Below the pieces are notes generated by a model, which did no database searches, had not been told where the DNA came from, and was given only the letters and a program-made list of their open reading frames with translations. From contig CAWJEP010000005.1 of assembly GCA_963841935.1 (NCBI GenBank), positions 164,003-228,002 on the forward strand: a stretch of DNA of 64,000 nt, read 5' to 3'. Below are positions 4,912 to 60,012 of the stretch, piece after piece (positions within the stretch are counted from its first letter, which is position 1; every line of letters starts with the position of its first letter). The DNA is from an uncultured bacterium (GTDB taxonomy: Bacteria > Patescibacteriota > Minisyncoccia > Phycocordibacterales > UBA6065). The translations under genes were made by a program, and so were the position numbers.

Positions 4912-5910
4912 ATGCTTAATCCTTCACAAAAACTCAATACGAAAATGTTTGACGCTGATGTCGAGCAAATGCCGATACGAAAAGGTTTCGGAGAAGGACT
5001 CGTCGTCGCCAGCGAAGAAAACAAAAATGTCGTTGGGCTTTGCGCCGACCTGACCGAGTCCACGCAGATGTATCTTTTCAAAAATAAATTCCCTGAAAGA
5101 TTCGTCGAGGTCGGCGTCGCCGAACAAAACCTTGCCACAGTCGCGTCAGGCATGGCGGCGATGGGCAAGATTCCTTTCATAAGTTCTTACGGTACTTTTT
5201 CTCCCGGAAGAAATTGGGAACAAATCAGGACGACTATTTGTTTCAACAATCAGCCGGTCAAAATTGCCGGCAACCACACCGGCGTCTCCGTCGGTCCCGA
5301 CGGCGGCACGCATCAGGCGATTGAGGACATCGCCATCGCCCGCGTTTTGCCTCGTATGGTAGTAATTTCGCCTTGCGACGCTCTGGAAGCCAAGAAAGCC
5401 ACTATTGCCGCGGCAAAGACCAACACGCCCGTATACATTCGTCTCGCGCGCGAGAAAACCCCCGTGATGACGACAGACGCGACGCCGTTTGAAATAGGCA
5501 AAGCGCAAGTTTTCTACGACCCGCCGGCGGGGAAGCCGGATGTCGCGATAATCGCCACAGGTGCACTTCTCTATAAAGCCCTCGTCGTTGCGCGCGAATT
5601 TCAAAAAGAAAATATCGGCGTCCGCGTCATAAATCTTTCGACAATCAAACCGCTCGATGAAAAAACGATTTTAAGAGCGGCAAAAGACGCGAAAGCAATA
5701 GTTACCGTCGAAGAACATCAAATCGCCGGCGGTATGGGAAGCGCCGTCGCGGAGTTTCTCTCGGCAGTCTATCCTGTGCCGATGGAACGCATCGGCGTCA
5801 AAGACCAATTCGGCCAAAGCGGCACGCCGGAAGAACTCATCGAACATTACGGTATGGGTGTCACGCACATCAAAGAAGCGGTAAAGAAAGTTTTGAAGAG
5901 AAAAATCTAA
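4912..5910 (+). CDS. Transketolase, C-terminal (pyrimidine-binding/C-terminal domain) subunit
   Basis: 'FVEVGVAEQNLATVASGMA' transketolase pyrimidine-domain motif. The gene follows the N-terminal subunit directly. Confidence 0.85.
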   Translation: MLNPSQKLNTKMFDADVEQMPIRKGFGEGLVVASEENKNVVGLCADLTESTQMYLFKNKFPERFVEVGVAEQNLATVASGMAAMGKIPFISSYGTFSPGRNWEQIRTTICFNNQPVKIAGNHTGVSVGPDGGTHQAIEDIAIARVLPRMVVISPCDALEAKKATIAAAKTNTPVYIRLAREKTPVMTTDATPFEIGKAQVFYDPPAGKPDVAIIATGALLYKALVVAREFQKENIGVRVINLSTIKPLDEKTILRAAKDAKAIVTVEEHQIAGGMGSAVAEFLSAVYPVPMERIGVKDQFGQSGTPEELIEHYGMGVTHIKEAVKKVLKRKI

Positions 5911-6533
5911 GGAAGCGGTTCTTGTTTGCGGCCCGAGAGAGCGTCGGAAAGAGTTTCGCGGTCGATGTATTCGATTTCAGCGCCGGTAGAGAGTCCGCGA
6001 CCGAGAACGGAAACTTTTATTTCGTGTTTTTTGACCGACTCGCGGATTGCGTCTTCGATTGTGGCTCGTGTGTTATCGCCTTCGGGATTGAGGCTCGTGG
6101 CGATAATAATTTCTTTCAAATCCTTTCTGTCTTTATTTATGCGAGAAACCAATTCTTTCGTACGAAGCGGGCTTTGTTTTTTTGCGGAGAAAGCCGACGT
6201 GCCGCCGAGAATAAAATACAAACCTTTGTAGAGATTGGTATTTTCGATACTTTCAAAATCCACATCGCGCGGCAAAACCATCAGTAGGGAATGGTCGCGG
6301 CCGCCATCGGCGCAAATGCCGCAGGCATTTGCGCCGCCTTTGGCTTCAAAAAACCGAAAGCACACGGAGCATTGCCTGACATTTTCGTCCATAAACTCTA
6401 TTTCTTTGACGAAATCTTCGCGGAAAGTTTTGTTTTTATGCAAAAGAAAATAAACGAAGCGTTCGGCTTGGCGCGGGCCGATACCGGGAAATTCGCGGAA
6501 TATTTCTTTGAGCTTTTCGAGCGAGTCAGCCAT
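5907..6533 (-). CDS. recR: Recombination protein RecR
   Basis: The C4 zinc finger 'CSVCFRFFEAKGGANACGIC' and a Toprim domain match RecR. Start is the ATG at 6533 (MADSLEK). Confidence 0.85.
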   Translation of the reverse strand: MADSLEKLKEIFREFPGIGPRQAERFVYFLLHKNKTFREDFVKEIEFMDENVRQCSVCFRFFEAKGGANACGICADGGRDHSLLMVLPRDVDFESIENTNLYKGLYFILGGTSAFSAKKQSPLRTKELVSRINKDRKDLKEIIIATSLNPEGDNTRATIEDAIRESVKKHEIKVSVLGRGLSTGAEIEYIDRETLSDALSGRKQEPLP

Positions 6534-6534
6534 A

Positions 6535-7913
6535 TTAATTTTCCGCTTGCGCGAATTCTCCGAAATCGGCTTTCTCAATCGGCACGAAAGATGACTTGTC
6601 CTTATCGAAAGAGAGCTGAATCCTGCCGGTCGGGCCGTTCCTGTGTTTCTCAACGAGGATTTCGGTGGTGATGAAACTTTTTTCCCTGTTTTCTTCGCTG
6701 TATTTGTCTTCCTGATGAATAAACATCACGATGTCCGCGTCTTGCTCGATTGAGCCAGAGTCGCGCAAGTCGGAGAGGCGAGGGCGACCGCCGCGGCTTT
6801 CCACGGCGCGGGAAAGCTCGAGAGCGCGAGCACTGGGATATCGAATTCTTTCGCCATTTGTTTGAGCGAGCGGGAAATTTCGGTGATTTGCTGGACCAAG
6901 TTGTCGTTTTTGATGTTCGTCGGCATCATAAGCTGGAGATAGTCGACGATGACGAGGCCGAGCTTGCCTTCACGCTGTAGGCGACGAGCGACGGCGCGCA
7001 TTTTGACGATGCTGTTACTGCTTTGGTCGTCGATGTAAATCGGAGCGGTGGAAAGAGCCGCCAAGCCGTCACGAACAATGCTTAAATCTTTATCGATGTT
7101 TAATTTTCCGGTACGAAGTTTGAAAGCGTTGACGCGCGCTTCGGCGGCGAGCATCCTGTCGACAAGCTGAGGCACGGCCATTTCAAGAGAGAAAATACAA
7201 ACCGGAATCTTGCCGCGCACAGCGACATTTCTCGCGATATCGAGAGCGAGGGATGTTTTACCCATCGAGGGGCGAGCGGCAAGAATAATGAGGTCGGAAG
7301 GCTGAAGGCCGGAGAGGAGGTTGTCTATGTCTCTAAATCCTGTCGGGATGCCGCGCAGAGCGCCTTCGTTGTTGTGAATGTGGTCGAGGCGCTCCCAAGC
7401 TTCGTCAAGAGCGTCTTTGAGATTTATGATCCTGTTTTGCGGCACCATTGCCGAGACGTCGTGAATGATTTTGTTGGCCGCGTCCACTATTTCGTCCACG
7501 TTGCTATCTTCGTCCACGCCGACGTCTTTTATCATTTCTCCGGCTTCTATCATTCGCCTCATCAAAGCTTTCTTGTGGACGATGTCGGCGTAATTTTTTA
7601 TGTTCGAAGTGGACGGCACAGCGGAGACGAGCTCGCCGAGATACGCCGAACCGCCGACGGATTCGAGTTGGCCTTTTTCCGAAAGAAGGTTTGAAAGAGA
7701 GAGTAAATCTATCGGCTCGTTTTTGTTCGAGAGTTCGAAAATAGAATCCCAAATCGTCTTGTGTTTGTTCGAATAGAAAACGTCACCCGTGACAATGTCC
7801 ACGACATCGTGAATAGTGTCGGGTTTGATGATGATAGCGCCAAGCAAAGCGCGCTCGGCTTCGAGAGATTGCGGCGGTGCTTTGAGCAATGCGTCTTTGC
7901 TACGGTCTGCCAT
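6535..7913 (-). CDS. dnaB: Replicative DNA helicase DnaB, interrupted by an apparent 1-nt frameshift near 6810-6818
   Basis: The N-terminal domain and Walker A/B lie in ORF 6726-7913. The C-terminus ('SRGGRPRLSDLRDSGSIEQDADIV') continues in another frame in ORF 6535-6804. The expected 'ALSxLSRAVE' junction is missing one nucleotide. Confidence 0.8.
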
Positions 7914-7983: not shown

Positions 7984-9384
7984 TTAAGATTTTGCTCTGA
8001 CGGATGAGTCTTTTTCCGAATCCAAGACTTCATAGCCGAGTTTTTCGATTTGAATACGGATTTCGTCGGATTTGGCGAAGTCTTTGGCCGCGCGCGCTTT
8101 AGCGCGCGCGGCGAGAAGCTCCGATATTTCTTTCGGAATTTCCGCTTGAGGCGCGAAAAGTTCCAATCCCAATATTTCGTCGGCTGATTTTATGAAAGCA
8201 AGTTTTTCTTTTGCGTCAGCGTCGCTCTCCAACATATTCCAAACCTCAGCGAGAAGTTTCGGCGTATCTAAATCATCCGCGGCGAAGGAAATCGCCAATG
8301 GCGCGCGCGTAGTCTTAGCGGAGTCCTCGGAGCGCACAAGCGCGCCATTGGCGATTTCCGCAGCCTTCGCCTTTAATCTTTTGAACGCATTCGCCGCATT
8401 GTCGAGAGCTTCGAAACTAAAATTGAGCGGCGCGGAATACCTCGCGGTCAAAAGAAAATATCGGTAGGCGAGAGGAGAGTAGCCTTTTTCGACAAGCGTT
8501 GAAAGCGTCAGGAAATTGCCGGCGGATTTCGCCATTTTTCCGCTGTCGATGGTGACGAATGCGTTGTGGATCCAGTAATGTGCGAATTTTTTTCCCGTGG
8601 CGTGTTCCGATTGGGCGATTTCGTTGTTGTGATGGACGGGAATATGGTCGATGCCTCCGGTGTGAATGTCGAAAGTCTCGCCGAGAAATTTCATCGACAT
8701 CGCCGAACATTCTATGTGCCAGCCCGGGTAGCCGAGGCCGAGAGGACTTTTGAAACCCATATGGCCGTCTTTGGAAAATTTCCACAAGGCGAAATCGCGT
8801 GGATTTTTCTTTCCGCCGTCAGCCATTCGCGTCTGACTTTCGCCCAAAGGCGTCAGTCCGCCGAGCCTGCCGTAATCGGAAATTTTTGAAGTGTCAAAAT
8901 ATATTCCGTCGTCCGCGCGGTAAGTCAGACCTTTTTTATCCAACTCTTTGATAAGTTTTAGGTCGGCTTTTAGATAACGGCTCGCGCGCGGGAACTTCGT
9001 GCCTTTGGTTTCGATATTCAAAAGTTTCAAATCATTTTTGAAAGCCGATTCGTATTTGTCGGCAAGTTTCTTTAGTCCATCGAGCGTCATCGGCAAATTT
9101 TCGCGTTTGAGACCTTTGACCATTTTGTCGTCGCCCGAATCGGCGTCGGACGATAGGTGTCCGATGTCGGTAATGTTTATGACTTGTTTTATTTTGTATC
9201 CCGCCGCTTCAAATGTCCGACGCAAAGTATCGGCAAAGACATACGAACGCAAGTTTCCGATATGAGCGAAATCATAGACGGTTGGGCCGCAGTGATACAT
9301 TCCGACCTTGCCATTTTTTATCGGGACGAAAACATCTTTCTTTCCCGAAAGGGAATTTTCCAGTTTTATTTCCTGATATTTCAT
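7984..9384 (-). CDS. cysS: Cysteinyl-tRNA synthetase (carries an in-frame palindromic-element insertion)
   Basis: HIGH-region 'CGPTVYDFAHIGN' and 'KMAKSAGN' motifs. The ORF runs continuously through the repeat copy at 8291-8356. Confidence 0.9.
   Translation of the reverse strand: MKYQEIKLENSLSGKKDVFVPIKNGKVGMYHCGPTVYDFAHIGNLRSYVFADTLRRTFEAAGYKIKQVINITDIGHLSSDADSGDDKMVKGLKRENLPMTLDGLKKLADKYESAFKNDLKLLNIETKGTKFPRASRYLKADLKLIKELDKKGLTYRADDGIYFDTSKISDYGRLGGLTPLGESQTRMADGGKKNPRDFALWKFSKDGHMGFKSPLGLGYPGWHIECSAMSMKFLGETFDIHTGGIDHIPVHHNNEIAQSEHATGKKFAHYWIHNAFVTIDSGKMAKSAGNFLTLSTLVEKGYSPLAYRYFLLTARYSAPLNFSFEALDNAANAFKRLKAKAAEIANGALVRSEDSAKTTRAPLAISFAADDLDTPKLLAEVWNMLESDADAKEKLAFIKSADEILGLELFAPQAEIPKEISELLAARAKARAAKDFAKSDEIRIQIEKLGYEVLDSEKDSSVRAKS
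8291..8356. repeat. Palindromic repeat element copy B, inserted in frame within cysS (16-bp perfect inverted arms atcgccaatggcgcgc/gcgcgccattggcgat)
   Basis: Core gcgtagtcttagcggagtcctcggagcgcacaagc belongs to the same family as 1466-1500. It translates as ...EIANGALVRSEDSAKTTRAPLAIS... in CysRS. Confidence 0.8.
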
Positions 9385-20396: not shown

Positions 20397-21797
20397 TTAT
20401 TTCTTCGCTTTCTTGATTTCTATACCGAGTTCGCGCAGTTGCTCGGAGGAAACTTCCGACGGAGCTTTCATCATCAGGTCGCGACCTTCGCCGGTCTTGG
20501 CGAAAGCGATGACTTCGCGAATGTTCGGTTCGTTTTGGAGAATCGCCATAAGTCTGTCTATGCCCCACGCGATTCCTCCGTGCGGCGGCGCGCCATAGGA
20601 AAGCGCATCGAGCATGTGACCGAAATTTTCTTTTATTTTTTCCGGTTTGTGTCCCATAATTTCAAAAACTTTCTGCAAAGCTTCCGGCCGATGATTTCTT
20701 ATGCCGCCGCCACCAAGCTCGTAACCGTTTAACACGATGTCGTATTGCGTGGCGACTATTTCTCCGATTTTTTCTTTCTTCATAAGCAAATCCATATCTT
20801 CCGGCCTCGGCGCGGAAAAAGGATTGTGACTGAATGTCCAACCACCTTCGTCCGTTTTTTCGAATTGAGGAAAATCTATGACCCAACAGAAAGCCAAAAG
20901 GTTCGGGTCATTCTTGTCCGAGCGAATGTCCGGCTTATCGCTTTTGTATTTTTCCATCGCTTCCTTGTACGAAATTCTCGGAAAAGGAATGGCTTGGATT
21001 TTTTTCTGGGGCGCAAGGGTCTTTACGAGTTCTATGAGAAGTTTTTCGTTGAGCGCCATTACATCTTCCTGCTCGACGAAACTTATTTCCATATCAAGCT
21101 GGGTAAATTCCGGCTGGCGGTCGCCGCGAGTGTCTTCGTCACGCATACAACGCGCGAATTGAAAATATTTTTCAAAACCCGCGACCATTAGAAGCTGTTT
21201 GTATTGCTGGGGCGATTGAGGCAAAGCGTAGAATTTTCCGTTTTCGAGTCTCGACGGCACGATATAGTCGCGCGAACCTTCCGGCGTGGATTTTGTCAGC
21301 ATAGGCGTCTCGATTTCCGTGAAGCCTTCTTTCGTAAGCCAATTCCTGACGAAAAGATTGACCGCGTGGCGAAGACGCACATTTCCCTGCATTCTAGGGC
21401 GACGCAAATCTAGATAGCGGTATGTCAGACGGCTCTCCTCGCCGATTTCTTTACCGTCGCTTCGCACATCGATTGGCGGCGTCTGTGCTTCGTTAAGTAC
21501 GCTAATTTTAAGAATTTCGAGTTCGATAGTGCCGTTTTGTTTGTCTTTTTGAATATTTTTTTCCGGTCTGCCGTTTATTTTTCCTTCGACTTCGACGACC
21601 CACTCCGAGCGAACCTTTGAACCGACTTCGTGGGCCTCTTTGGCGTTCGGAAGAATGACGCCTTGGACATAGCCAGTCATATCGCGGAAATCAAAGAAAA
21701 TCATTTTGCCTTGGTCGCGACGAATATCCACCCAGCCTTTTATCGTAACTTTCTCTCCGACTTCTTTCTCCAAATCTTTTATGTATGTTCTTTTCAT
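20397..21797 (-). CDS. aspS: Aspartyl-tRNA synthetase (compact form lacking the bacterial GAD insertion)
   Basis: Class II motif 2 'FRDEDTRGDRQPEFTQLDMEISF', motif 3 'PPHGGIAWGIDRLMAIL', N-terminal OB fold. Confidence 0.85.
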   Translation of the reverse strand: MKRTYIKDLEKEVGEKVTIKGWVDIRRDQGKMIFFDFRDMTGYVQGVILPNAKEAHEVGSKVRSEWVVEVEGKINGRPEKNIQKDKQNGTIELEILKISVLNEAQTPPIDVRSDGKEIGEESRLTYRYLDLRRPRMQGNVRLRHAVNLFVRNWLTKEGFTEIETPMLTKSTPEGSRDYIVPSRLENGKFYALPQSPQQYKQLLMVAGFEKYFQFARCMRDEDTRGDRQPEFTQLDMEISFVEQEDVMALNEKLLIELVKTLAPQKKIQAIPFPRISYKEAMEKYKSDKPDIRSDKNDPNLLAFCWVIDFPQFEKTDEGGWTFSHNPFSAPRPEDMDLLMKKEKIGEIVATQYDIVLNGYELGGGGIRNHRPEALQKVFEIMGHKPEKIKENFGHMLDALSYGAPPHGGIAWGIDRLMAILQNEPNIREVIAFAKTGEGRDLMMKAPSEVSSEQLRELGIEIKKAKK

Positions 21798-21801
21798 ATT
21801 T

Positions 21802-22758
21802 TTATCTTACGCCAATGGCTTTTCGCACGATTTCCATTTTCTTCTCGGCCGCTTCGCGAGCCCTATCGGCACCCTTTGCTAAAATTTTCAAAACTTTCTT
21901 CGGGTCGCGCGCGATTTTCTCCCTGCGCTCGCGAAGCGGCCGGATAAATGCGATGAGGTCGGCAATCAAAGTTTCTTTCAAATCCTTGTACTTGCCTTTC
22001 TTCTCCGCGTATAGTTTTTCAAGCTCGGCTTTCGAGCGGAAGAGTGAGTGAATGGCATAGACATTTTCCGGTCTTTCGCCGGAAGAATCTGTGACAATTG
22101 TCATAACAAATTTCCTTATTTCTTCATCTGTCGCGAAAAGTCCGAGGTCATTGCCGTAGCTTTTAGACATCTTCCGGCCGTCATTTCCGGGAACAACCGC
22201 GACGGTCGAGAGAATCAAATCGGTCGGCAATTTGAAAACTTCGCTGTGCGAAAGTTCTGTTGAATTTTTGCGCCGTGTCGCGCGCGTATTCGACATGTTG
22301 TTTTTGGTCCTGCCCCACCGGCACGACATCGGTGTCGTAAAGCAAAATATCCGCCGCCATAAGCATCGGGTAATTGAAAGTGCCGACAGAGATTTCCTTG
22401 TCTTTGGCTTCGGCGTTTTTGTAAGCGTGCGCGCGCATTAGATATGGCATCGTCGTGATGGTGTCGAATATCCAAGCAAGCTCGGTATGCGTCGAGAACG
22501 TCGGATTGTTTGAAGATTACAGACTTCTTCGGGTCGAGGCCGATGGCGAGATAGTCGATGGCGAGGTTCAAGATTAAGTTGCGCATTTCCGTCGCCGTTT
22601 TGAATGAGATTTAGTCCGTGATAATCGGCAATGAAAAAGTAGCAGTCGTATTTGTCCTGCAAGTCGACGAATTGCTTCATCGCGCCGAAATAATTGCCTA
22701 TATGCGGCCGTCCCGTCGGTTTGACGCCCGAAAGAAGGATTTTCTTAGCCATCGCCAA
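21802..22758 (-). pseudogene. trpS: Tryptophanyl-tRNA synthetase, fragmented into 4 reading frames by at least 3 short indels (about 22255, 22490, 22590)
   Basis: ORF pieces 22438-22758 (HIGH 'TGRPHIGNY'), 22215-22586, 22181-22450 and 21802-22329 ('KMSKS') read in order as one TrpRS of about 319 aa. Removing a single C near 22490 restores 'VLEHTELAWIFD'. Confidence 0.75.
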
Positions 22759-38150: not shown

Positions 38151-38777
38151 TTATTTCGTCAATAAATCTTTCCCGACACGCGCGGCGAGGATGAGAAAAG
38201 CTGGGTCGGCGGAAATGGAATTGCTCGTGGAAACTTTGGAACCAAGGAGTTTTTTCGTCACGTCCTTTCCGGAAAGACGTTCGTCGACGGTTTCGGAAAC
38301 AACACGGTCAAACGACAAGATTTTGTGTTTATGGTGGAGTGACGACACTATATCATGTATTTCTCTCGGCAAAGCGACGGCGTCTTCTATTATGACAAAT
38401 GCTCCTTTCGGAACGCCGAAGTCTGAAGAAAGTTTTGATAGAAATTTTTCCGCGGTGAGATTTTTCGGCTTGGATTCTATCCAAGGCGATGAAAAAGAAA
38501 AATAAACGTTTTTGTTCGAATATGAGTCGAAAAAATCGTGGCGAAGTATCCGGCGGCGAATATGTTCGTCGAGACGATAAAGGGTTTCGCGCATAGCGCT
38601 TATCATCCGCCGTGCGCTTTGCTCGATTGCGCCATTTGGAAAAAAATATTCCCGACAGACATAAACGATGTGAGGCATGCCGCCTTTTGCCGACAAGAGA
38701 ACGGCGGCTCCGACCGAGTCGGCGCAAATATCGTAGACGACGGAAACTTCCCCGTTTTTGCGAGAAGCGGAAAACAT
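38151..38777 (-). CDS. Hypothetical protein (weak resemblance to the N-terminal half of actin-like PilM/FtsA ATPases)
   Basis: Only 'VSVVYDICADSVGAAVL' resembles the phosphate-1 loop of actin-fold proteins. Confidence 0.3.
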   Translation of the reverse strand: MFSASRKNGEVSVVYDICADSVGAAVLLSAKGGMPHIVYVCREYFFPNGAIEQSARRMISAMRETLYRLDEHIRRRILRHDFFDSYSNKNVYFSFSSPWIESKPKNLTAEKFLSKLSSDFGVPKGAFVIIEDAVALPREIHDIVSSLHHKHKILSFDRVVSETVDERLSGKDVTKKLLGSKVSTSNSISADPAFLILAARVGKDLLTK

Positions 38778-38786
38778 ATGTCTATA

Positions 38787-40481
38787 TTATAGCAAAACCG
38801 CTTTGATACGGCGCACGCCGGCGCTGACGGCTTCTTCTTTTTGGATTTTAAAAACTCCGAGTTCCGAAGTGTTTTTGACGTGAGGACCGCCGCAGAATTC
38901 TTTCGAATACGCATGGTCGAGAGAATCTCCAACGTAATAAATACTGACGTCGTCGCCGTATTTGTCGCCGAAAGCGTGGTAAGCGCCAGTCTTCTTCGCT
39001 TCCGTTTTTTTCATTACGACTTTACCGACCGGCAGAGCGGCTTTTATTTTTTCGTTGACGATATCTTCAACTTTTTTCTTTTCCTCGTCCGTCATCTTGC
39101 GCGGAAATGTGAAATCGAAACGCAAACGCTCCGGCGTGATATTACTTCCTTTCTGGGTAATTTCCGTTTTCAAAACATCGTGAAGCGCTTGGTGCAAAAG
39201 ATGCGTGGCCGTGTGATAACGCACGGATATTTCCGACGTGTCGCCGAGACCGCCTTTAAACATTCCCTCGGAGGACGTGCGCGAAAGTTCCTGATGGTTT
39301 TTCATTTTCTTATTGAAATCGTCCATATCGACGACGCCCAACTCCTTCGTGAGTTCTACGGGAAAACCGTATGTCGTCCAGAGAACAAAAGCGTCCGTGC
39401 CTTTTTCGAGTTCCCTTTTTCCTTCCGCGAGCGTCACCGAGAATTTTCCTTCTTCTTCTTTGAATACGGCGGGGATTTTCTCTTCTTTCAGATTCGGATA
39501 GATTTTTGAATATTCGTTCGCGTACCATTTTATGATTTGAGACCCCAAATTTTCATGTCCGGAAGTATTCATGCTCATTCTAAAAATCGCCCGACGCAGA
39601 AGTCGGCGCAAGACGTATCCCTGGTCTTTGTTGCTAGGCAAAACTCCGTCGGCAATGAGAAACGTCGCCGTGCGCATATGGTCGGCGACGATTCTGGCGC
39701 TCTCATCGCTCCAATTTTTACCATTCTTTTTTATTAAATCGATGACGGACGCGAAGAGGTCCGTCTCAAAAACATTTTTTTTGTTTTGCACGGTGGCGAG
39801 CAGGCGTTCAAAACCCATACCGGTGTCGATGCCGAGGGTCGGAAGTTTTTCAAACCTCGCTTCGCCGTTATCGAGCATTTCTCGCGAGCCATCGCAAAAA
39901 TATTCGTTGAAAACAATATTCCAAATTTCCACATCTTTGCCGTCGGCATTCTTGCAGTATATTTCCGTCGTCGGACCGCACGGACCGCTTTCCCCCGTCG
40001 GCCCCCAGAAGACGTCGCTTCCCTCTTCGCGAATATCTTTGACGCTCAATTTCTCCCAAATCATTTTCGATTCGTCGTCGCGCGGAACGTTGGCGTTGCC
40101 TCTGAAAAAAGTCACATAAGAAATCGGCAAAGCGAGTTCCTTCATAATAAATTCGTGAGCGTATTTTATCGCCTCTTCCCTGCCGTATCCGCCGAAAGAA
40201 AAATTGCCGAGCATTTCGAAAAAAGTCAGGTGCGTGGCGTCACCGACTTCGTCGATGTCGGATGTGCGCACGCATTTCTGCACCGTGGTCGTGTTTTTCG
40301 AACCGAAATCTTTCAGGGCGTTTCTGTCGCCCGTATAATATGTTTTAAACTGCTGCATTCCCGCCGTGGTAAAAAGCACCGACGGGTCGCTTTCCGGCAA
40401 GAGTGAAGACGACGGAATGATAACGTGTCCGCGTTTTTTGAAAAATTCGAGAAATTTATTACGCAGTTCCGTTGAAGTCAT
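38787..40481 (-). CDS. alaS: Alanyl-tRNA synthetase, short form (catalytic + editing domains, no C-Ala domain)
   Basis: 'FTTAGMQQFK' class II motif and editing-site 'HTATHLLH'/'CGGPHV' motifs. Only 564 aa. Confidence 0.85.
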   Translation of the reverse strand: MTSTELRNKFLEFFKKRGHVIIPSSSLLPESDPSVLFTTAGMQQFKTYYTGDRNALKDFGSKNTTTVQKCVRTSDIDEVGDATHLTFFEMLGNFSFGGYGREEAIKYAHEFIMKELALPISYVTFFRGNANVPRDDESKMIWEKLSVKDIREEGSDVFWGPTGESGPCGPTTEIYCKNADGKDVEIWNIVFNEYFCDGSREMLDNGEARFEKLPTLGIDTGMGFERLLATVQNKKNVFETDLFASVIDLIKKNGKNWSDESARIVADHMRTATFLIADGVLPSNKDQGYVLRRLLRRAIFRMSMNTSGHENLGSQIIKWYANEYSKIYPNLKEEKIPAVFKEEEGKFSVTLAEGKRELEKGTDAFVLWTTYGFPVELTKELGVVDMDDFNKKMKNHQELSRTSSEGMFKGGLGDTSEISVRYHTATHLLHQALHDVLKTEITQKGSNITPERLRFDFTFPRKMTDEEKKKVEDIVNEKIKAALPVGKVVMKKTEAKKTGAYHAFGDKYGDDVSIYYVGDSLDHAYSKEFCGGPHVKNTSELGVFKIQKEEAVSAGVRRIKAVLL

Positions 40482-46507: not shown

Positions 46508-49393
46508 CTAGTTTGGAACAATAAAATTTATTATTTTGTTTTTCACGTAAATTATTTTCGACGGTGTTTTTCCGGAGAGCCATTTCTCTAATTCCGACGC
46601 GGCAAAAGCGACTGCTTTTGCCGCGTCTTCGTCGGCATCCGCGGGCACCTCAATCACCGCGCGAACTTTGCCGTTTACTTGTACGGCAATATTTACTTTG
46701 GCGTCTTTGATAAACGCTTCATCCCACTTAGGCCAATCGGAAAGATGTATGGACTTTTTGTTTCCAAGCGAGCGCCATAATTCTTCGCTTATGTGTGGAG
46801 CGAAAGGCGCGAGAAGCTTCAAATAGCTCTCAAAATCGGCGCGAGCTATTGTCGGCACCTTGTCAAAAGCGTTTTGCAAAATCATAAGCGAACTTATCGC
46901 CGTGTTGAAACGCAAATTGGCGATGTCTTCGGTAACTTTCTTGATTGTTTTGTGTAAAAGCGTGTTTGTCGAAGAAAAAACAGCCTCTGGCGAGCGCGTA
47001 GTCTTAGCGGAGTCGGCGGAGCGCACAAGCGAGCCAGAGGCTGTTTTTTCGGAGACTTTCCACACGCGTTCGATGAACCGCCGCGAGCCAATCATACTGT
47101 CGGTGGACCATGCTATGGCTTGATCGAAAGGTCCCATAAACATTTCGTAAACGCGCAAAGTGTCGGCGCCGTATGTCGCGACTATGTCGTCGGGATTTAC
47201 GACATTGCCGAAACGTTTGGACATTTTTCTGCCGTCTTCGCCCATTATGAGTCCGACCGACTGCAATTTTTTAAACGGCTCGATTGTCGAGACAACGCCA
47301 ATGTCGTAAAGAAATTTGTGCCAAAAACGCGCGTATATGAGATGGCGTGTGGCGTGCTCGGCGCCGCCCACATAAAAGTCCACGCTGTTCCAATATTTTT
47401 CTTTTTTCGGAGAAACTAAAACCTTGGAGTCTTTCGGGTCCATATATCGCAAGTAATACCAAGAGCTCCCTGCCCATTGCGGCATCGTATTCGTCTCTCG
47501 TTTCATTCCTTTGAAATTGACCCATTTAGAAATCTCAGCCAAAGGCGACTCCCCCGTTCCCGTCGGTTCGTAATATTTCACTTTCGGCAATACCACCGGC
47601 AAATCTTTTTCCGAGACCGGCACTATTTTATTTCCGTTATGAAGCACCGGGATCGGCTCACCCCAATAGCGCTGCCGTGAGAAAACCCAATCTTTCAATT
47701 TGTATTTCGTCACCCATTTTCCGCCGGCTTTTTCGATGGCGTTCCTATCGGCAAACGGTTCGTCCTTTACGGGCAACTTGAACTTTTCCGCGAACGCCGC
47801 GTCTCTCTCGTCGTGTTTCGGCACTCCCATCACGGCTCCCGTGCCGTAATCGGCAAGGACATAGTCAGCAATCCAGACCGGCACCTCTTCCCCATTCACT
47901 GGATTTACCGCCTTGATTCCTTTCAATTCAACGCCGGTTTTTTCTTTCTTTGCGTCCGTGCGCTCAATTTCCGTTTTGATTCTCGCGGCGGCGACATATT
48001 TCACGACTTCTTTTTCGTTTTTCACTTCATGCAAAAGTTTTTCCACGAGCGGATGCTCCGGAGAAAGCACGACATACGTCACGCCGAAAAGCGTGTCTGG
48101 ACGAGTAGTGAAAACTTTTATTTTTTCCGTTTGATTTTTTATGGCGAAATCGATTTCCGCGCCTTCGCTTCGGCCAATCCAATTTCTCTGCGCCTCTTTT
48201 ATGGATTCCGGCCAATCAAGAAGCGGCTTCACAATATGGCGTGGCGCGCCGTCCATTACCAAATCCCAGCCGAGTTTCGAACCTTCGGCCGTCATTGCGT
48301 CACGAACTTTTTCCTCGGGAAGCCAAGTGACTTCGTGTTTGGCTTGTTCGTCAGCTACGACAGGAGCTTGTTCGCCGTCTTTTAGTTTGAAATAAAAAGA
48401 AGTGAAATGTCCGACGCGGTTTTCGTCTTTCGGCGGATGGAAAAATGTCGAGTGGTATTGACCGGCGCTTCTTTTCACGAGCGTCAGGTTTTTAAATCCC
48501 GTCTCTTCGAATATTTCCGCTCGCGCCGCTTCTTCCGGCGTCTGGCCTTTTTCGATGCCGCCAGTGATAGGAGTCGTCCAATCCACCTTTTTCCATTTGA
48601 GAACTATAAATTTCTTCTCCGACCAGTGTTCGACAAAAGCGCATATGGCGTTTCTCGGAACAAACGGCTTGTCCAATCTCACTTTGCCCGGAACATCGCT
48701 ATTCATATGGGTGATTCCAAATTCGCCATTCGGCAATGTCTCAAAAATGTCGCCGTTTGGCAAAACATTGGTGTCCAAGTCTTTCAAAAGTCTGTCGGCG
48801 TAATCGGTGATTTTCAAAACCCACTGGCGCATCGGTTTCTTCTCGACCGGCGTGCCGCAGCGCTCGCAGCGACCGTCTTCGACGTCTTCGTTCGCGAGGC
48901 CGGTCTTACACGACGGACACCAATTTATCGGCTCGTATGATTCGTAAGCCAAGCCTTTTTCCAAAAGTTTGAGAAAAATCCATTGCGTCCATTTGTAATA
49001 TTTCGGGTCGGTCGTGTTGATTTCCCTACTCCAATCATAATCAAAACCAATGATTTCCAGCTGTTTTTTGTACCTTGCGACATTTTTCGCCACGGCCACG
49101 ACCGGATTGGTCTTGGTCAAAATGGCGTAATTTTCCGCCGGCAAGCCGAAAGCGTCGAAACCCATTGGATGTAAGACGTTGTGCCCCTGCATCCTTTTCA
49201 TTCGGGAGACGATGTCGGTCGCGATGTAGCCCTTCGGATGGCCGACATGAAGACCTTCGCCCGAAGGATACGGAAACATATCGAGAACATAAAACTTGGG
49301 CTTGGGAGAATCATCCTTGGTCGCGTATATTTTCTTTTTCGCCCACCCCTTCTGCCACTTTTTTTCTATTTTCTTATGGTCGTATTGTTTCAT
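46508..49393 (-). CDS. leuS: Leucyl-tRNA synthetase carrying (i) an inserted NUDIX hydrolase domain and (ii) an in-frame palindromic-element insertion
   Basis: 'HVGHPKGY' HIGH motif, 'KMSKRFGN' and editing/anticodon domains. A Nudix box 'GGIEKGQTPEEAARAEIFEETGF' sits between '...LKDLD' and 'WPESIKEAQRNWIGRSEG'. Start is the ATG at 49393. Confidence 0.9.
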   Translation of the reverse strand: MKQYDHKKIEKKWQKGWAKKKIYATKDDSPKPKFYVLDMFPYPSGEGLHVGHPKGYIATDIVSRMKRMQGHNVLHPMGFDAFGLPAENYAILTKTNPVVAVAKNVARYKKQLEIIGFDYDWSREINTTDPKYYKWTQWIFLKLLEKGLAYESYEPINWCPSCKTGLANEDVEDGRCERCGTPVEKKPMRQWVLKITDYADRLLKDLDTNVLPNGDIFETLPNGEFGITHMNSDVPGKVRLDKPFVPRNAICAFVEHWSEKKFIVLKWKKVDWTTPITGGIEKGQTPEEAARAEIFEETGFKNLTLVKRSAGQYHSTFFHPPKDENRVGHFTSFYFKLKDGEQAPVVADEQAKHEVTWLPEEKVRDAMTAEGSKLGWDLVMDGAPRHIVKPLLDWPESIKEAQRNWIGRSEGAEIDFAIKNQTEKIKVFTTRPDTLFGVTYVVLSPEHPLVEKLLHEVKNEKEVVKYVAAARIKTEIERTDAKKEKTGVELKGIKAVNPVNGEEVPVWIADYVLADYGTGAVMGVPKHDERDAAFAEKFKLPVKDEPFADRNAIEKAGGKWVTKYKLKDWVFSRQRYWGEPIPVLHNGNKIVPVSEKDLPVVLPKVKYYEPTGTGESPLAEISKWVNFKGMKRETNTMPQWAGSSWYYLRYMDPKDSKVLVSPKKEKYWNSVDFYVGGAEHATRHLIYARFWHKFLYDIGVVSTIEPFKKLQSVGLIMGEDGRKMSKRFGNVVNPDDIVATYGADTLRVYEMFMGPFDQAIAWSTDSMIGSRRFIERVWKVSEKTASGSLVRSADSAKTTRSPEAVFSSTNTLLHKTIKKVTEDIANLRFNTAISSLMILQNAFDKVPTIARADFESYLKLLAPFAPHISEELWRSLGNKKSIHLSDWPKWDEAFIKDAKVNIAVQVNGKVRAVIEVPADADEDAAKAVAFAASELEKWLSGKTPSKIIYVKNKIINFIVPN
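46974..47050. repeat. Palindromic repeat element copy D inserted in frame within leuS (arms aaaaaacagcctctgg / ccagaggctgtttttt)
   Basis: Core gagcgcgtagtcttagcggagtcggcggagcgcacaagcgag. It is translated as ...KTASGSLVRSADSAKTTRSPEAVFS... in LeuRS. Confidence 0.8.
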
Positions 49394-49823
49394 TTTTAAA
49401 TTTGCGCAGAGCGAGATATATGAGTGCGATGAGAGCAATGCCGAGAATGACGACTCTCATCCAGCCGTAAGCCGACGACCAATATCTGAAAGACGCTATG
49501 ACAAGCGTGAGTATTCCGGAGAACGAAAGCGATGTGGAAACCACGGCATTTGTTTTCAAAAAGAAACTTAGGACGATGAGAATGACTCCGACGGCGACGA
49601 GAGTCATAAAGACTTCCGCCTGATAATTATTTTCCGCGGCGGTGTAATTATTTGAGCAAATGACATCGTTGGATTGCGGCGTAATAACGTCCGTTTGCGG
49701 GCAGAAATCGTTATATTGTGGCTCTTGGTAAATAAGCGAAAGAGAATAATTTATGAACATATTGGCGACGATGACGATGCCAATGATGAGCGACCATTTG
49801 AGAAGTTTTGATTGCTTTTGCAT
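49374..49823 (-). CDS. Hypothetical membrane protein (3-4 TM)
   Basis: Hydrophobic helices. It overlaps the leuS start by about 20 nt. Confidence 0.5.
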   Translation of the reverse strand: MQKQSKLLKWSLIIGIVIVANMFINYSLSLIYQEPQYNDFCPQTDVITPQSNDVICSNNYTAAENNYQAEVFMTLVAVGVILIVLSFFLKTNAVVSTSLSFSGILTLVIASFRYWSSAYGWMRVVILGIALIALIYLALRKFKNETIRP

Positions 49824-55259: not shown

Positions 55260-58200
55260 TTAACAATTCCAAATCACTCCGTTTATATCCATAATCGACG
55301 CGGCCGGCATTCCATTGACTGTTTTTATTGAAGTTTTATCGAGATTGTTTATTGTTTTTAGTTCCACGACGCAAACAGATGGGCTGACCGAAGGTGAGAT
55401 ACTCGGTGACGGGCTGACGCTTGGACTGGGAGAAACGCTCGGTGAAATTGACGGTGATGGACTGATTGATGGTGAAGCTGATGGACTTGGAGAAGTGCTC
55501 GGTGAGAGTGACGGTGAAAGTGACGACAAAGGTGACGGTGATATGGATGGCGATATCGATGGAGATTCGGATGGAGAGATAGATGGACTAAGAGACGGCG
55601 AAGGGCTGACGCTCGGTGACAAAGATGGGCTCGGACTGACAGATGGAGATACCGAGGGTGAAAGGCTTGGGCCGATGGACGGCGAAAGTGACGGCGAAAG
55701 TGATGGGCTGATACTCGGCGAGAGACTTGGCGAGAGAGACGGTGATGGAGAAACTGACGGGGAAACTGAAGGACTTAAACTTGGACTAAGAGATGGTGAG
55801 GGCGAAACCGAAGGAGAAATGCTCGGAGAAAGCGATGGTGAAAGTGATGGGCTCGGACTAACTGAAGGTGAAATGCTCGGCGAGAGAGACGGGCTGAGTG
55901 ACGGCGACAAACTCGGCGAAAGTGAAGGACTTGGAGATACGGACGGCGAAACGGACGGAGAAATACTCGGCGAGAGAGATGAACCAGCTGAAGGAGAAAC
56001 CGAGGGAGAGATACTTGGCGAAAGTGACGGACTTGGGGAAACGGACGGCGAAACCGAAGGTGAAATGCTTGGCGAGAGTGATGGGCTTGGCGAAACCGAC
56101 GGCGAAATACTCGGTGAAAGTGAAGGAGAAAGTGACGGAGACAAACTCGGCGAGAGAGACGGCGATGGAGAAACTGACGGACTAACTGAAGGACTTAAAG
56201 ATGGCGAGAGCGAGGGACTTGGTGAAGTCGAAGGTGAAACGCTTGGGCTAAGCGAAGGTGAAAGAGACGGCGAGAGACTCGGCGATAGACTTGGGCTCGG
56301 TGAAACTGAGGGTGAAACCGACGGAGAAATACTTGGCGAGAGTGAAGGGCTTGGACTAACCGATGGTGAAATACTTGGTGAAAGAGATGGAGACAAACTT
56401 GGCGAGAGACTCGGCGAAATGCTCGGGCTCGGTGAGACCGAAGGGCTGACTGATGGTGAGATGCTCGGTGAGAGTGATGGCGAAGGTGAAACCGATGGTG
56501 AGATCGATGGTGAGAGAGATGGACTAAGTGATGGAGAAAGTGATGGCGATATCGAAGGGCTTGGACTGACTGATGGTGAGACCGAAGGACTCAAACTCGG
56601 TGACAGAGACGGTGATGGCGAAACCGACGGCGAAATACTCGGTGAAAGTGAAGGAGAAAGTGACGGAGACAAACTTGGCGAGAGAGACGGCGATGGAGAA
56701 ACTGACGGACTAACTGAAGGACTTAAAGATGGCGAGAGCGAGGGACTTGGTGAAGTCGAAGGTGAAACGCTTGGGCTAAGCGAAGGTGAAAGAGACGGCG
56801 AGAGACTCGGCGATAGACTTGGGCTCGGTGAAACTGAGGGTGAAACCGACGGAGAAATACTTGGCGAGAGTGAAGGGCTTGGACTAACCGATGGTGAAAT
56901 ACTTGGTGAAAGAGATGGAGACAAACTTGGCGAGAGACTCGGCGAAATGCTCGGGCTCGGTGAGACCGAAGGGCTGACTGATGGTGAGATGCTCGGTGAG
57001 AGTGATGGCGAAGGTGAAACCGATGGTGAGATCGATGGTGAGAGAGATGGACTAAGTGATGGAGAAAGTGATGGCGATATCGAAGGGCTTGGACTGACTG
57101 ATGGTGAGACCGAAGGACTCAAACTCGGTGACAGAGACGGTGATGGCGAAACCGACGGCGAAATACTCGGTGAAAGTGAAGGAGAAAGTGACGGAGACAA
57201 ACTTGGCGAGAGAGACGGCGATGGAGAAACTGACGGACTAACTGAAGGACTTAAAGATGGCGAGAGCGAGGGACTTGGTGAAGTCGAAGGTGAAACGCTT
57301 GGGCTAAGCGAAGGTGAAAGAGACGGCGAGAGACTCGGCGATAGACTTGGGCTCGGTGAAACTGAGGGTGAAACCGACGGAGAAATACTTGGCGAGAGTG
57401 AAGGGCTTGGACTAACCGATGGTGAAATACTTGGTGAAAGAGATGGAGACAAACTTGGCGAGAGACTCGGCGAAATGCTCGGGCTCGGTGAGACCGAAGG
57501 GCTGACTGATGGTGAGATGCTCGGTGAGAGTGATGGCGAAGGTGAAACCGATGGTGAGATCGATGGTGAGAGAGATGGACTAAGTGATGGAGAAAGTGAT
57601 GGCGATATCGAAGGGCTTGGACTGACTGATGGTGAGACCGAAGGACTCAAACTCGGTGACAGAGACGGTGATGGCGAAACCGACGGCGAAATACTCGGTG
57701 AAAGTGAAGGAGAAAGTGACGGAGACAAACTTGGCGAGAGAGACGGCGATGGAGAAACTGACGGACTAACTGAAGGACTTAAAGATGGCGAGAGCGAGGG
57801 ACTTGGTGAAGTCGAAGGTGAAACGCTTGGGCTAAGCGAAGGTGAAAGAGACGGCGAGAGACTCGGCGATAGACTTGGGCTCGGTGAAACTGAGGGTGAA
57901 ACCGACGGAGAAATACTTGGCGAGAGTGAAGGGCTTGGACTAACCGATGGTGAAATACTTGGTGAAAGAGATGGAGACAAACTTGGCGAGAGACTCGGCG
58001 AAATGCTCGGGCTCGGTGAGACCGAAGGGCTGACTGATGGTGAGATGCTCGGTGAGAGTGATGGCGAAGGTGAAACCGATGGTGAGATCGATGGTGAGAG
58101 AGATGGACTAAGTGATGGAGAAAGTGATGGCGATATCGAAGGGCTTGGACTGACTGATGGTGAGACCGAAGGACTCAAACTCGGTGACAGAGACGGTGAT

Positions 58201-60012
58201 GGCGAAACCGACGGCGAAATACTCGGTGAAAGTGAAGGAGAAAGTGACGGAGACAAACTTGGCGAGAGAGACGGCGATGGAGAAACTGACGGACTAACTG
58301 AAGGACTTAAAGATGGCGAGAGCGAGGGACTTGGTGAAGTCGAAGGTGAAACGCTTGGGCTAAGCGAAGGTGAAAGAGACGGCGAGAGACTCGGCGAAAT
58401 GCTCGGGCTCGGTGAGACCGAAGGGCTGACTGATGGTGAGATGCTCGGTGAGAGTGATGGCGAAGGTGAAACCGATGGTGAGATCGATGGTGAGAGAGAT
58501 GGACTAAGTGATGGAGAAAGTGATGGCGATATCGAAGGGCTTGGACTGACTGATGGTGAGACCGAAGGACTCAAACTCGGTGACAGAGACGGTGATGGCG
58601 AAACCGACGGCGAAATACTCGGTGAAAGTGAAGGAGAAAGTGACGGAGACAAACTCGGCGAGAGAGACGGCGATGGAGAAACTGACGGACTAACTGAAGG
58701 ACTTAAAGATGGCGAGAGACTCGGCGATAGACTTGGGCTCGGTGAAACTGACGGACTGACTGAAGGACTTAAAGATGGCGAGAGCGAGGGACTTGGTGAA
58801 GTCGAAGGTGAAATGCTCGGCGAGAGAGAGGGCTGAAAGTGACGGCGAGAGACTCGGCGATAGACTTGGGCTCGGTGAAACTGAGGGTGAAACCGACGGA
58901 GAAATACTTGGCGAGAGTGAAGGGCTTGGACTAACCGATGGTGAAATACTTGGTGAAAGAGATGGAGACAAACTTGGCGAGAGACTCGGCGAAATGCTCG
59001 GGCTCGGTGAGACCGAAGGGCTGACTGATGGTGAGATGCTCGGTGAGAGTGATGGCGAAGGTGAAACCGATGGTGAGATCGATGGTGAGAGAGATGGACT
59101 AAGTGATGGAGAAAGTGATGGCGATATCGAAGGGCTTGGACTGACTGATGGTGAGACCGAAGGACTCAAACTCGGTGACAGAGACGGTGATGGCGAAACC
59201 GACGGCGAAATACTCGGTGAAAGTGAAGGAGAAAGTGACGGAGACAAACTCGGTGAAAGACTCGGCGAAAGACTTGGACTTGGAGATACGGAGGGTGAAA
59301 TGGACGGAGAAAGAGATGGAGAAATACTCGGACTAAGCGATGGACTAAGTGACGAAATAAACCATGTGATTTGAATGACTCCGTTTCCTCCCTGTCCTCC
59401 TGTGTTACCGTTTCTTCCCGACCCTCCACCACCGCCTCCATAGTTTGCTCCGTTAGCGCCAGTTGCGTTTACTCCTCCAGCTCCTCCGTTTCCGGCTGGA
59501 GTTCCCCCATTTGCTCCACCAGCGTGAGTTCCCGACCCATTCGCTCCGGTTCCTCCGTTTCCAGTGTTCCCGGCTCCTCCACCTCCTCCACCTCCGTTGT
59601 TGCTACCTCCGTTTCCTCCGTTTCCTCCGTTGTGTGACGTCCAAGTGACGACTCCGTTACCGGTTGTGTTGCTATTACCCCCGACTCCACGTGCGCCACC
59701 GGCGTTGCCTCCACCACCTCCACCGGCCGCCTCGATGATAAGAGTGTTGCCCGCAGTATTGAAAAATGTGGTTCCGCCAGCGCCGCCGGATGCGTTTGCG
59801 GTTCGTGTTCCGCCGTTTCCGGCGGAATAATTAAAAGCGATGTTCGGACCAGATATGGTTATAGTTGTCTGAGCCCAAGCGCCACCACCACCACCACTAC
59901 CGTTGTTGCCTCCACCACCTCCACCTCCACCTCCAATAACCTGAACAACCGCGGAAGTTGCTGTGGTGCTATTCCATGTACCGCTACCTGTAAGATTTGA
60001 TGTTGTCGCCAT
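55260..60012 (-). CDS. Giant (about 1580 aa) protein: Gly/Asn-rich N-terminal domain followed by more than 1100 aa of (S-P-S-L/I/V)n low-complexity repeat. Interrupted by one frameshift at about 58836-58850.
   Basis: ORF 58690-60012 starts with a non-repetitive Gly-rich domain and runs in frame into SPSx repeats. ORF 55260-58652 continues the same repeat. The repeat consensus gains +1 nt at about 58845. All neighbours are minus-strand. The plus-strand alternative (acidic GExxGE repeat, ORF 55315-58836) cannot be excluded. Confidence 0.55.
55400..59340. repeat. Tandem-repeat DNA: 12-nt (4-codon) units organised into 528-bp higher-order repeats (at least 4 near-identical copies at 56101-58212, plus partial copies)
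   Basis: 'accgaaggactcaaactcggtgacagagacggtgatggcgaaaccgacggcgaaatactc' recurs at 56581, 57109, 57637, 58165 (period 528) and again at 58561 (period 396). Confidence 0.9.

Follow-up and report, generated by a model that had tools for sequence, protein, structure and literature searches.

Does the break in the dnaB reading frame of this stretch of DNA belong to the organism, or did it enter with the deposited sequence? The gene lies on the minus strand at positions 7913..6535 of the window (the whole stretch analyzed, 64 kb in length) and is 1379 nt long as deposited, split across two minus-strand ORFs at 6726-7913 (395 aa) and 6535-6804 (89 aa).

Position and nature of the break in dnaB

The earlier note proposed that the two ORFs hold one dnaB gene, and the Pfam halves divide between them as it claimed. 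ORF 6726-7913 contains the DnaB N-terminal domain and DnaB_C profile positions 1-177, and ORF 6535-6804 contains profile positions 185-253 of 255. Translation reproduced the frame-0 reading given in that note, ...VLALSSFPAPW..., which in its longer form is ...IPVLALSSFPAPWKAAAV... and ends at a stop at 6726. The -1 frame reads ...LSRAVESRGGRPRLSDLRDSGSIEQDAD... and ...LSRAVESRGGRPRLSDLRDSGSIEQDADIVMFIH...KHRNGPTG... and runs on to the natural stop (6535-6537) just ahead of recR. The deposited gene does not have a single uninterrupted reading frame; the frame changes at 6819/6818.

The lesion was located by comparison with the dnaB DNA of seven relatives (L001-L006 and L023). The 1380-column alignment contains only one gap in the window sequence, at column 1095 (0-based), opposite the C of the relatives' CAA glutamine codon. 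The single-nucleotide deletion suspected at first reading was confirmed by this gap and by the length of the gene (1379 vs. 1380 nt, with one gap against six relatives). The absent base, a C, would open the Gln366 codon CAG (TCG-[C]AG-CTT) within the conserved ALSQLSR motif and stand between window positions 6819 (the G of TCG, Ser365) and 6818; the frameshift site, C-T-C-G^A-G, occupies 6817..6822 on the minus strand. The proposal that one base added in agc-ttt-ccc restores the frame pointed to the right interval (6805-6822), but the true gap is just 5' of that triplet series, at 6819/6818. The sequence context on the gene strand is CTCTCG^AGCTTT, which contains no homopolymer, as the note had also observed in stating that the site was not a long one. 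At 6814-6821 the deposited junction DNA is TCGAGCTT and the intact form is TCGCAGCTT; a peptide spanning the junction would read VLALSQLSR from the intact form, or VLALSS(F/L)SR or VLALSSFPAPWK otherwise.

Three segments follow from this position. Codons 1-365, on the minus strand at 6819..7913, encode the N-terminal domain plus the initial ~70% of the RecA-like domain at the C-terminus, to ...IPVLALS, as judged by Pfam and by tblastn, which aligned residues 1-365 of the relatives to 7913-6819. The remainder of codon 366 through codon 459 and the stop, ...(Q)LSRAVESRGGRPRLSDLRDSGSIEQDAD...KHRNGPTG..., lies in the -1 frame on the same strand at 6535..6818, where PF03796 positions 185-253 were matched and where tblastn placed residues 366-459 at 6819-6538 in a different frame. 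The third segment, at 6726..6818 (minus strand), is the out-of-frame tail of the 395-aa ORF, which in frame-0 translation reads SFPAPWKAAAVALASPTCATLAQSSKTRTS followed by a stop and is without homology. Judged by its sequence, this tail is not a real peptide; read in the -1 frame, its DNA specifies the conserved C-terminus of DnaB.

Both neighbors of dnaB on the minus strand are intact. The recR gene (5907..6533; 208 aa), directly downstream, was recognized by Pfam and aligned by tblastn over residues 1-208 of 208 in one frame with 95% identity. The cysS gene (7984..9384; 466 aa), directly upstream, was likewise recognized by Pfam and aligned over residues 6-469 of 470 in one frame. The cysS-dnaB-recR order of the window is also present in the relative L002. 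Local synteny differs in L023, which has a 182-aa gene (L023:316-864) upstream of dnaB at the place of cysS in the window.

The repaired protein, its relatives and the test for decay

Restoration of the one base (TCG-CAG-CTT) gave a 459-aa DnaB, the same length as the proteins of the relatives. The N-terminal domain profile PF00772 covered residues 13-113 (profile positions 2-102 of 103, E = 3e-33). The match to PF03796, which in the deposited gene is split into profile positions 1-177 (residues 188-366) and 185-253, became unbroken over positions 1-253 of 255 (E = 6e-98), which completes the C-terminal RecA-like domain, motifs H1-H4 and arginine-finger region included. The repaired protein scored 502.2 bits on the equivalog model TIGR00665, whose cut-off is 385.25, and its residues 11-449 aligned end to end with DnaB of Geobacillus stearothermophilus (PDB 2r6a) with E = 6e-117. 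In that alignment ALSQLSRAVE of the repaired protein faces ALSQLSRSVE of 2r6a. By these comparisons the match of the repaired protein to DnaB is far beyond chance, and the gene is most likely an ordinary, functional replicative helicase gene of a Patescibacteria/Paceibacterota-like bacterium.

A search of ~5.8 billion protein clusters returned five homologues of exactly 459 aa with 85-95% identity, and a cluster look-up added a sixth relative of the 459-aa type with 96.9% identity. The top 120 homologues were all ~436-487 aa long, and the named matches among the more distant ones were Paceibacterota or Patescibacteria. The record of L006 is labeled 'Candidatus Saccharibacteria', yet its DnaB groups with Paceibacterota-labeled sequences. 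In all six of the closest relatives dnaB is uninterrupted and 1380 nt long, with 79-87% nucleotide identity to the 1379 nt of the window, and the relatives read TCS CAA CTT at the position of the break.

The codons on the two sides of the break were compared with those of L023, the nearest relative (87% nucleotide identity). Read in the repaired frame, the 93 codons that follow the break differed by 38 synonymous changes and 1 non-synonymous change, a ratio similar to that of the 365 codons before it (105 synonymous, 13 non-synonymous). The same synonymous-dominated pattern was obtained with the other four relatives analyzed. Relaxed selection, further gaps and stops, the signs of a decaying pseudogene, were all absent from the 93 downstream codons in the comparison with L023. 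The 38:1 ratio downstream of the break indicates that the C-terminus of dnaB is undecayed and has been translated in the repaired frame throughout essentially the whole divergence from this relative. As read from these alignments, the lesion is either extremely young or absent from the organism.

Other frame changes and the contig

The window was surveyed for other broken genes by a Pfam search of ~70 ORFs and by tblastn with 45 proteins of the relatives. The tblastn search covered ~30 genes within 1-25.4 kb and detected frame changes in dnaB and trpS only. No other broken gene was detected in the window, of which the part from 25 to 64 kb was covered by Pfam, a weak test for hypothetical proteins. 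The four indels found, one in dnaB and three in trpS, are a lower bound. Their distribution is uneven; a 350-nt section of trpS contains three, dnaB contains one, and the other ~60 kb yielded none. This pattern fits local low coverage or strain mixing, although it had not been predicted.

The trpS gene lies ~15 kb from dnaB on the minus strand (21802..22752) and is 951 nt long vs. 948 nt in relatives. Three-frame translation and alignment with L024 and L025 revealed an extra base at each of three separate sites, ~22592 (A), ~22491 (C) and ~22246 (C), and these bases carry the frame from 2 to 0 to 1 and back to 2. By Pfam, the ORF at 21802-22329 covers a class-I Trp/Tyr tRNA synthetase in its C-terminal part only. 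Removal of the three bases gave a clean TrpRS of 315 aa, the length found in relatives and 93% identical to them. The out-of-frame segments had synonymous to non-synonymous ratios of 13:1 and 17:4 against L025, so trpS is without sign of relaxed selection. A second essential and conserved gene on the same contig thus carries frame-breaking single-base indels but is undecayed.

Three further aminoacyl-tRNA synthetase loci on the minus strand stood out. The class II synthetase of the D/K/N type at 20397-21797 (466 aa) is only ~30% identical to the syntenic gene in L024 and L025, while its flanks are 80-95% identical to those relatives; it may be a non-orthologous or xenologous replacement. The LeuRS ORF at 46508-49438 (976 aa) has a NUDIX match (PF00293, E = 7e-12) at residues 286-382, between the catalytic-domain and editing-domain matches. 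The AlaRS at 38151-40481 is short (564 aa) and ends just past the tRNA_SAD motif; its stop and three further codons are followed in the same frame by a 208-aa ORF (38151-38777) without a Pfam match. The downstream ORF may be unrelated to AlaRS; alternatively, the gene may be naturally split, or an in-frame stop may have severed a C-Ala domain.

Independent copies of the locus were sought in public data. Entry P0122 of the protein collection matches the 395-aa ORF exactly, and every window protein looked up in the clusters occurs on one public contig only, of 268,473 bp. Exact-product look-ups for the 395-aa ORF and for CysRS gave no match, and a pattern search of JGI metagenome contigs did not find the dnaB junction with either 0 or 1 extra base. 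A scan of GTDB representative genomes did not find the species and gave only a relative at 93% amino-acid identity.

The contig spans a tandem array of a 528-nt unit at 56.1-58.3 kb (~4 copies, 100% identical, ~2.2 kb). Short reads could hardly resolve a perfect array of this kind, which suggests that the assembly was built from long reads. The array lies in a 3.4-kb low-complexity repeat at 55260-58836 with long ORFs on both strands and a GC skew of up to 0.43. The minus-strand ORF (1130 aa) has the composition (SPS[LIV])n with 48% Ser and 26% Pro, the plus-strand ORF (1173 aa) is rich in Gly, Glu and Asp, and neither has a Pfam match. Neighboring genes encode Ig-like, dockerin and glycine-rich surface-type proteins.

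Explanations for the indels and comparison with known systems

We consider it highly probable (about 0.88) that the break in dnaB is an uncorrected single-base consensus indel and not a property of the organism, as judged from the deposited sequence and its relatives. The deposited consensus would have dropped one base, the C at the start of codon Gln366 in ALSQLSR, and the cellular gene would most likely read TCG CAG CTT and encode the 459-aa DnaB. All four indels would have arisen during sequencing or consensus calling of the metagenome assembly, probably a long-read one. A consensus error is favored because four indels lie within 16 kb in two essential, single-copy, conserved genes that have no decay, that are intact in the relatives and that have no recoding signals; two dead essential genes without decay are at odds with a living lineage. 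The earlier note had left the cause between an assembly or consensus error and an allele rescued by recoding. The first of these is strongly favored by the intact relatives, the purifying selection downstream of the break and the indels in trpS, and the second found no support, since the junction lacks both a slippery heptamer and a stimulatory structure and the shift is not conserved.

Two observations speak against an artefact, the uneven distribution of the indels and their sequence context. Consensus errors of HiFi and modern nanopore sequencing usually concentrate in homopolymers, and none of the four indels is in a homopolymer. A motif shared by the indel sites was also considered. The word TCTCGAGC, which includes the XhoI site CTCGAG, occurs in the observed dnaB junction and in the repaired second site of trpS, but it is a common word in the window (5 occurrences vs. 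3.3 expected) and CTCGAG itself occurs 18 times vs. 20 expected. An error at a methylation motif or an effect of the restriction site was dropped for this reason.

The best of the alternatives, though an improbable one, is that the sampled population or its dominant clone carries a real and very recent loss-of-function allele of dnaB, tolerated briefly or through a second dnaB elsewhere in the genome, outside the window. The dnaB site does not have the classic context of a sequencing error, as it lies outside any homopolymer, and the absence of decay would also fit a mutation that is only generations old. However, dnaB is essential, and the genomes of Patescibacteria are small and non-redundant. 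The tblastn search, which spanned 64 kb of the 268-kb contig, detected no second dnaB copy in the window, and a long-standing redundant copy would have led to relaxed selection on the broken gene, of which no sign was seen. A null allele would in addition need three independent recent insertions in the essential trpS gene, which is very improbable in a viable lineage.

Programmed recoding, in which a -1 ribosomal frameshift or transcriptional slippage restores full-length DnaB, is much less probable still. The direction is the one required, the downstream frame is well conserved, and a product of 459 aa with LSELSR, LSSLSR or LSSFSR would result if the frame changed after Ser365, Ser366 or Phe367, respectively. 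The junction, however, has none of the signals expected. The segment CUC UCG AGC UUU CCC (Ser365-Leu367) contains no zero-frame X XXY YYZ heptamer, and no A/T run is present for transcriptional slippage. The 96 nt from the junction fold at -36.6 kcal/mol, which is ordinary for their composition (z = -0.57; 53 of 200 shuffled sequences folded at least as well). The shift occurs in none of the six closest relatives, so the site is not conserved, and a slip would replace the Gln of SQLSR, which is unchanged in all six and in 2r6a. The three shifts in trpS are +1 and have no motif in common, and no stop codon follows them closely. That all four indels are real, with dnaB (-1) and trpS (three +1) expressed through signal-poor, non-canonical frameshifting or correction at the RNA level, is scarcely credible to us. 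If true, it would represent an unrecognized form of recoding in an ultra-small bacterium.

The least probable explanation of all is a split helicase, an active DnaB put together from two separately made peptides, an N-fragment of 365 residues and a C-fragment of 89 residues that starts at GTG 6804. A GTG codon does open the downstream ORF at 6804, but the sequence ahead of it (CTTTCCCGCGCC) has no Shine-Dalgarno-like purine run. The cut would fall inside the RecA-like core and delete the QLSRAV segment. It would also move the H4 loop and the KHRNGPTG segment to a separate peptide; the 2r6a alignment and what is generally known of DnaB identify the KHRNGPTG segment as the arginine-finger region. 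No relative is so arranged. Even taken together, recoding and a split helicase remain very improbable.

As a probable consensus error, the break in dnaB matters in practice only; it reflects on the quality of a public MAG contig and is not a biological feature. The public record of the contig gives a truncated 395-aa 'DnaB' (P0122) and a fragmented TrpRS. Artefacts of this kind would lower completeness and marker-gene scores and place spurious truncated proteins in databases, and the contig calls for polishing or frameshift-aware annotation. Were reads to bear out the deposited sequence, two essential genes that are broken yet undecayed would come as a great surprise and suggest recoding, for which the evidence at present leaves little space.

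Three known systems place the locus. The -1 frameshifting that produces tau and gamma from E. coli dnaX resembles the present case in that it concerns a replication gene and the -1 direction would be required. The dnaX site is conserved and combines an A AAA AAG slippery sequence with an SD-like element upstream and a hairpin downstream; all of these features are lacking at the dnaB junction. The replicative helicase DnaB of G. stearothermophilus (2r6a; TIGR00665; PF00772 and PF03796) is matched by the repaired protein in its N-terminal domain, its Walker motifs and the segments ALSQLSRAVE, DSGSIEQDAD and KHRNGPTG, and the only notable difference is that the deposited frame is broken at codon 366. 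Uncorrected indels are described as the main residual error of long-read assemblies and as a cause of frameshifts and truncated gene calls (Watson and Warr, 2019, cited in PMC8021871). Unlike the residual-indel frameshifts of long-read (meta)genome assemblies, the indels in the window lie outside homopolymers and three are clustered in one gene. The similarities are that single-base indels occur in isolation and truncate genes whose conservation is otherwise perfect, that several are present on one contig, that decay is absent and that the contig spans long perfect repeats.
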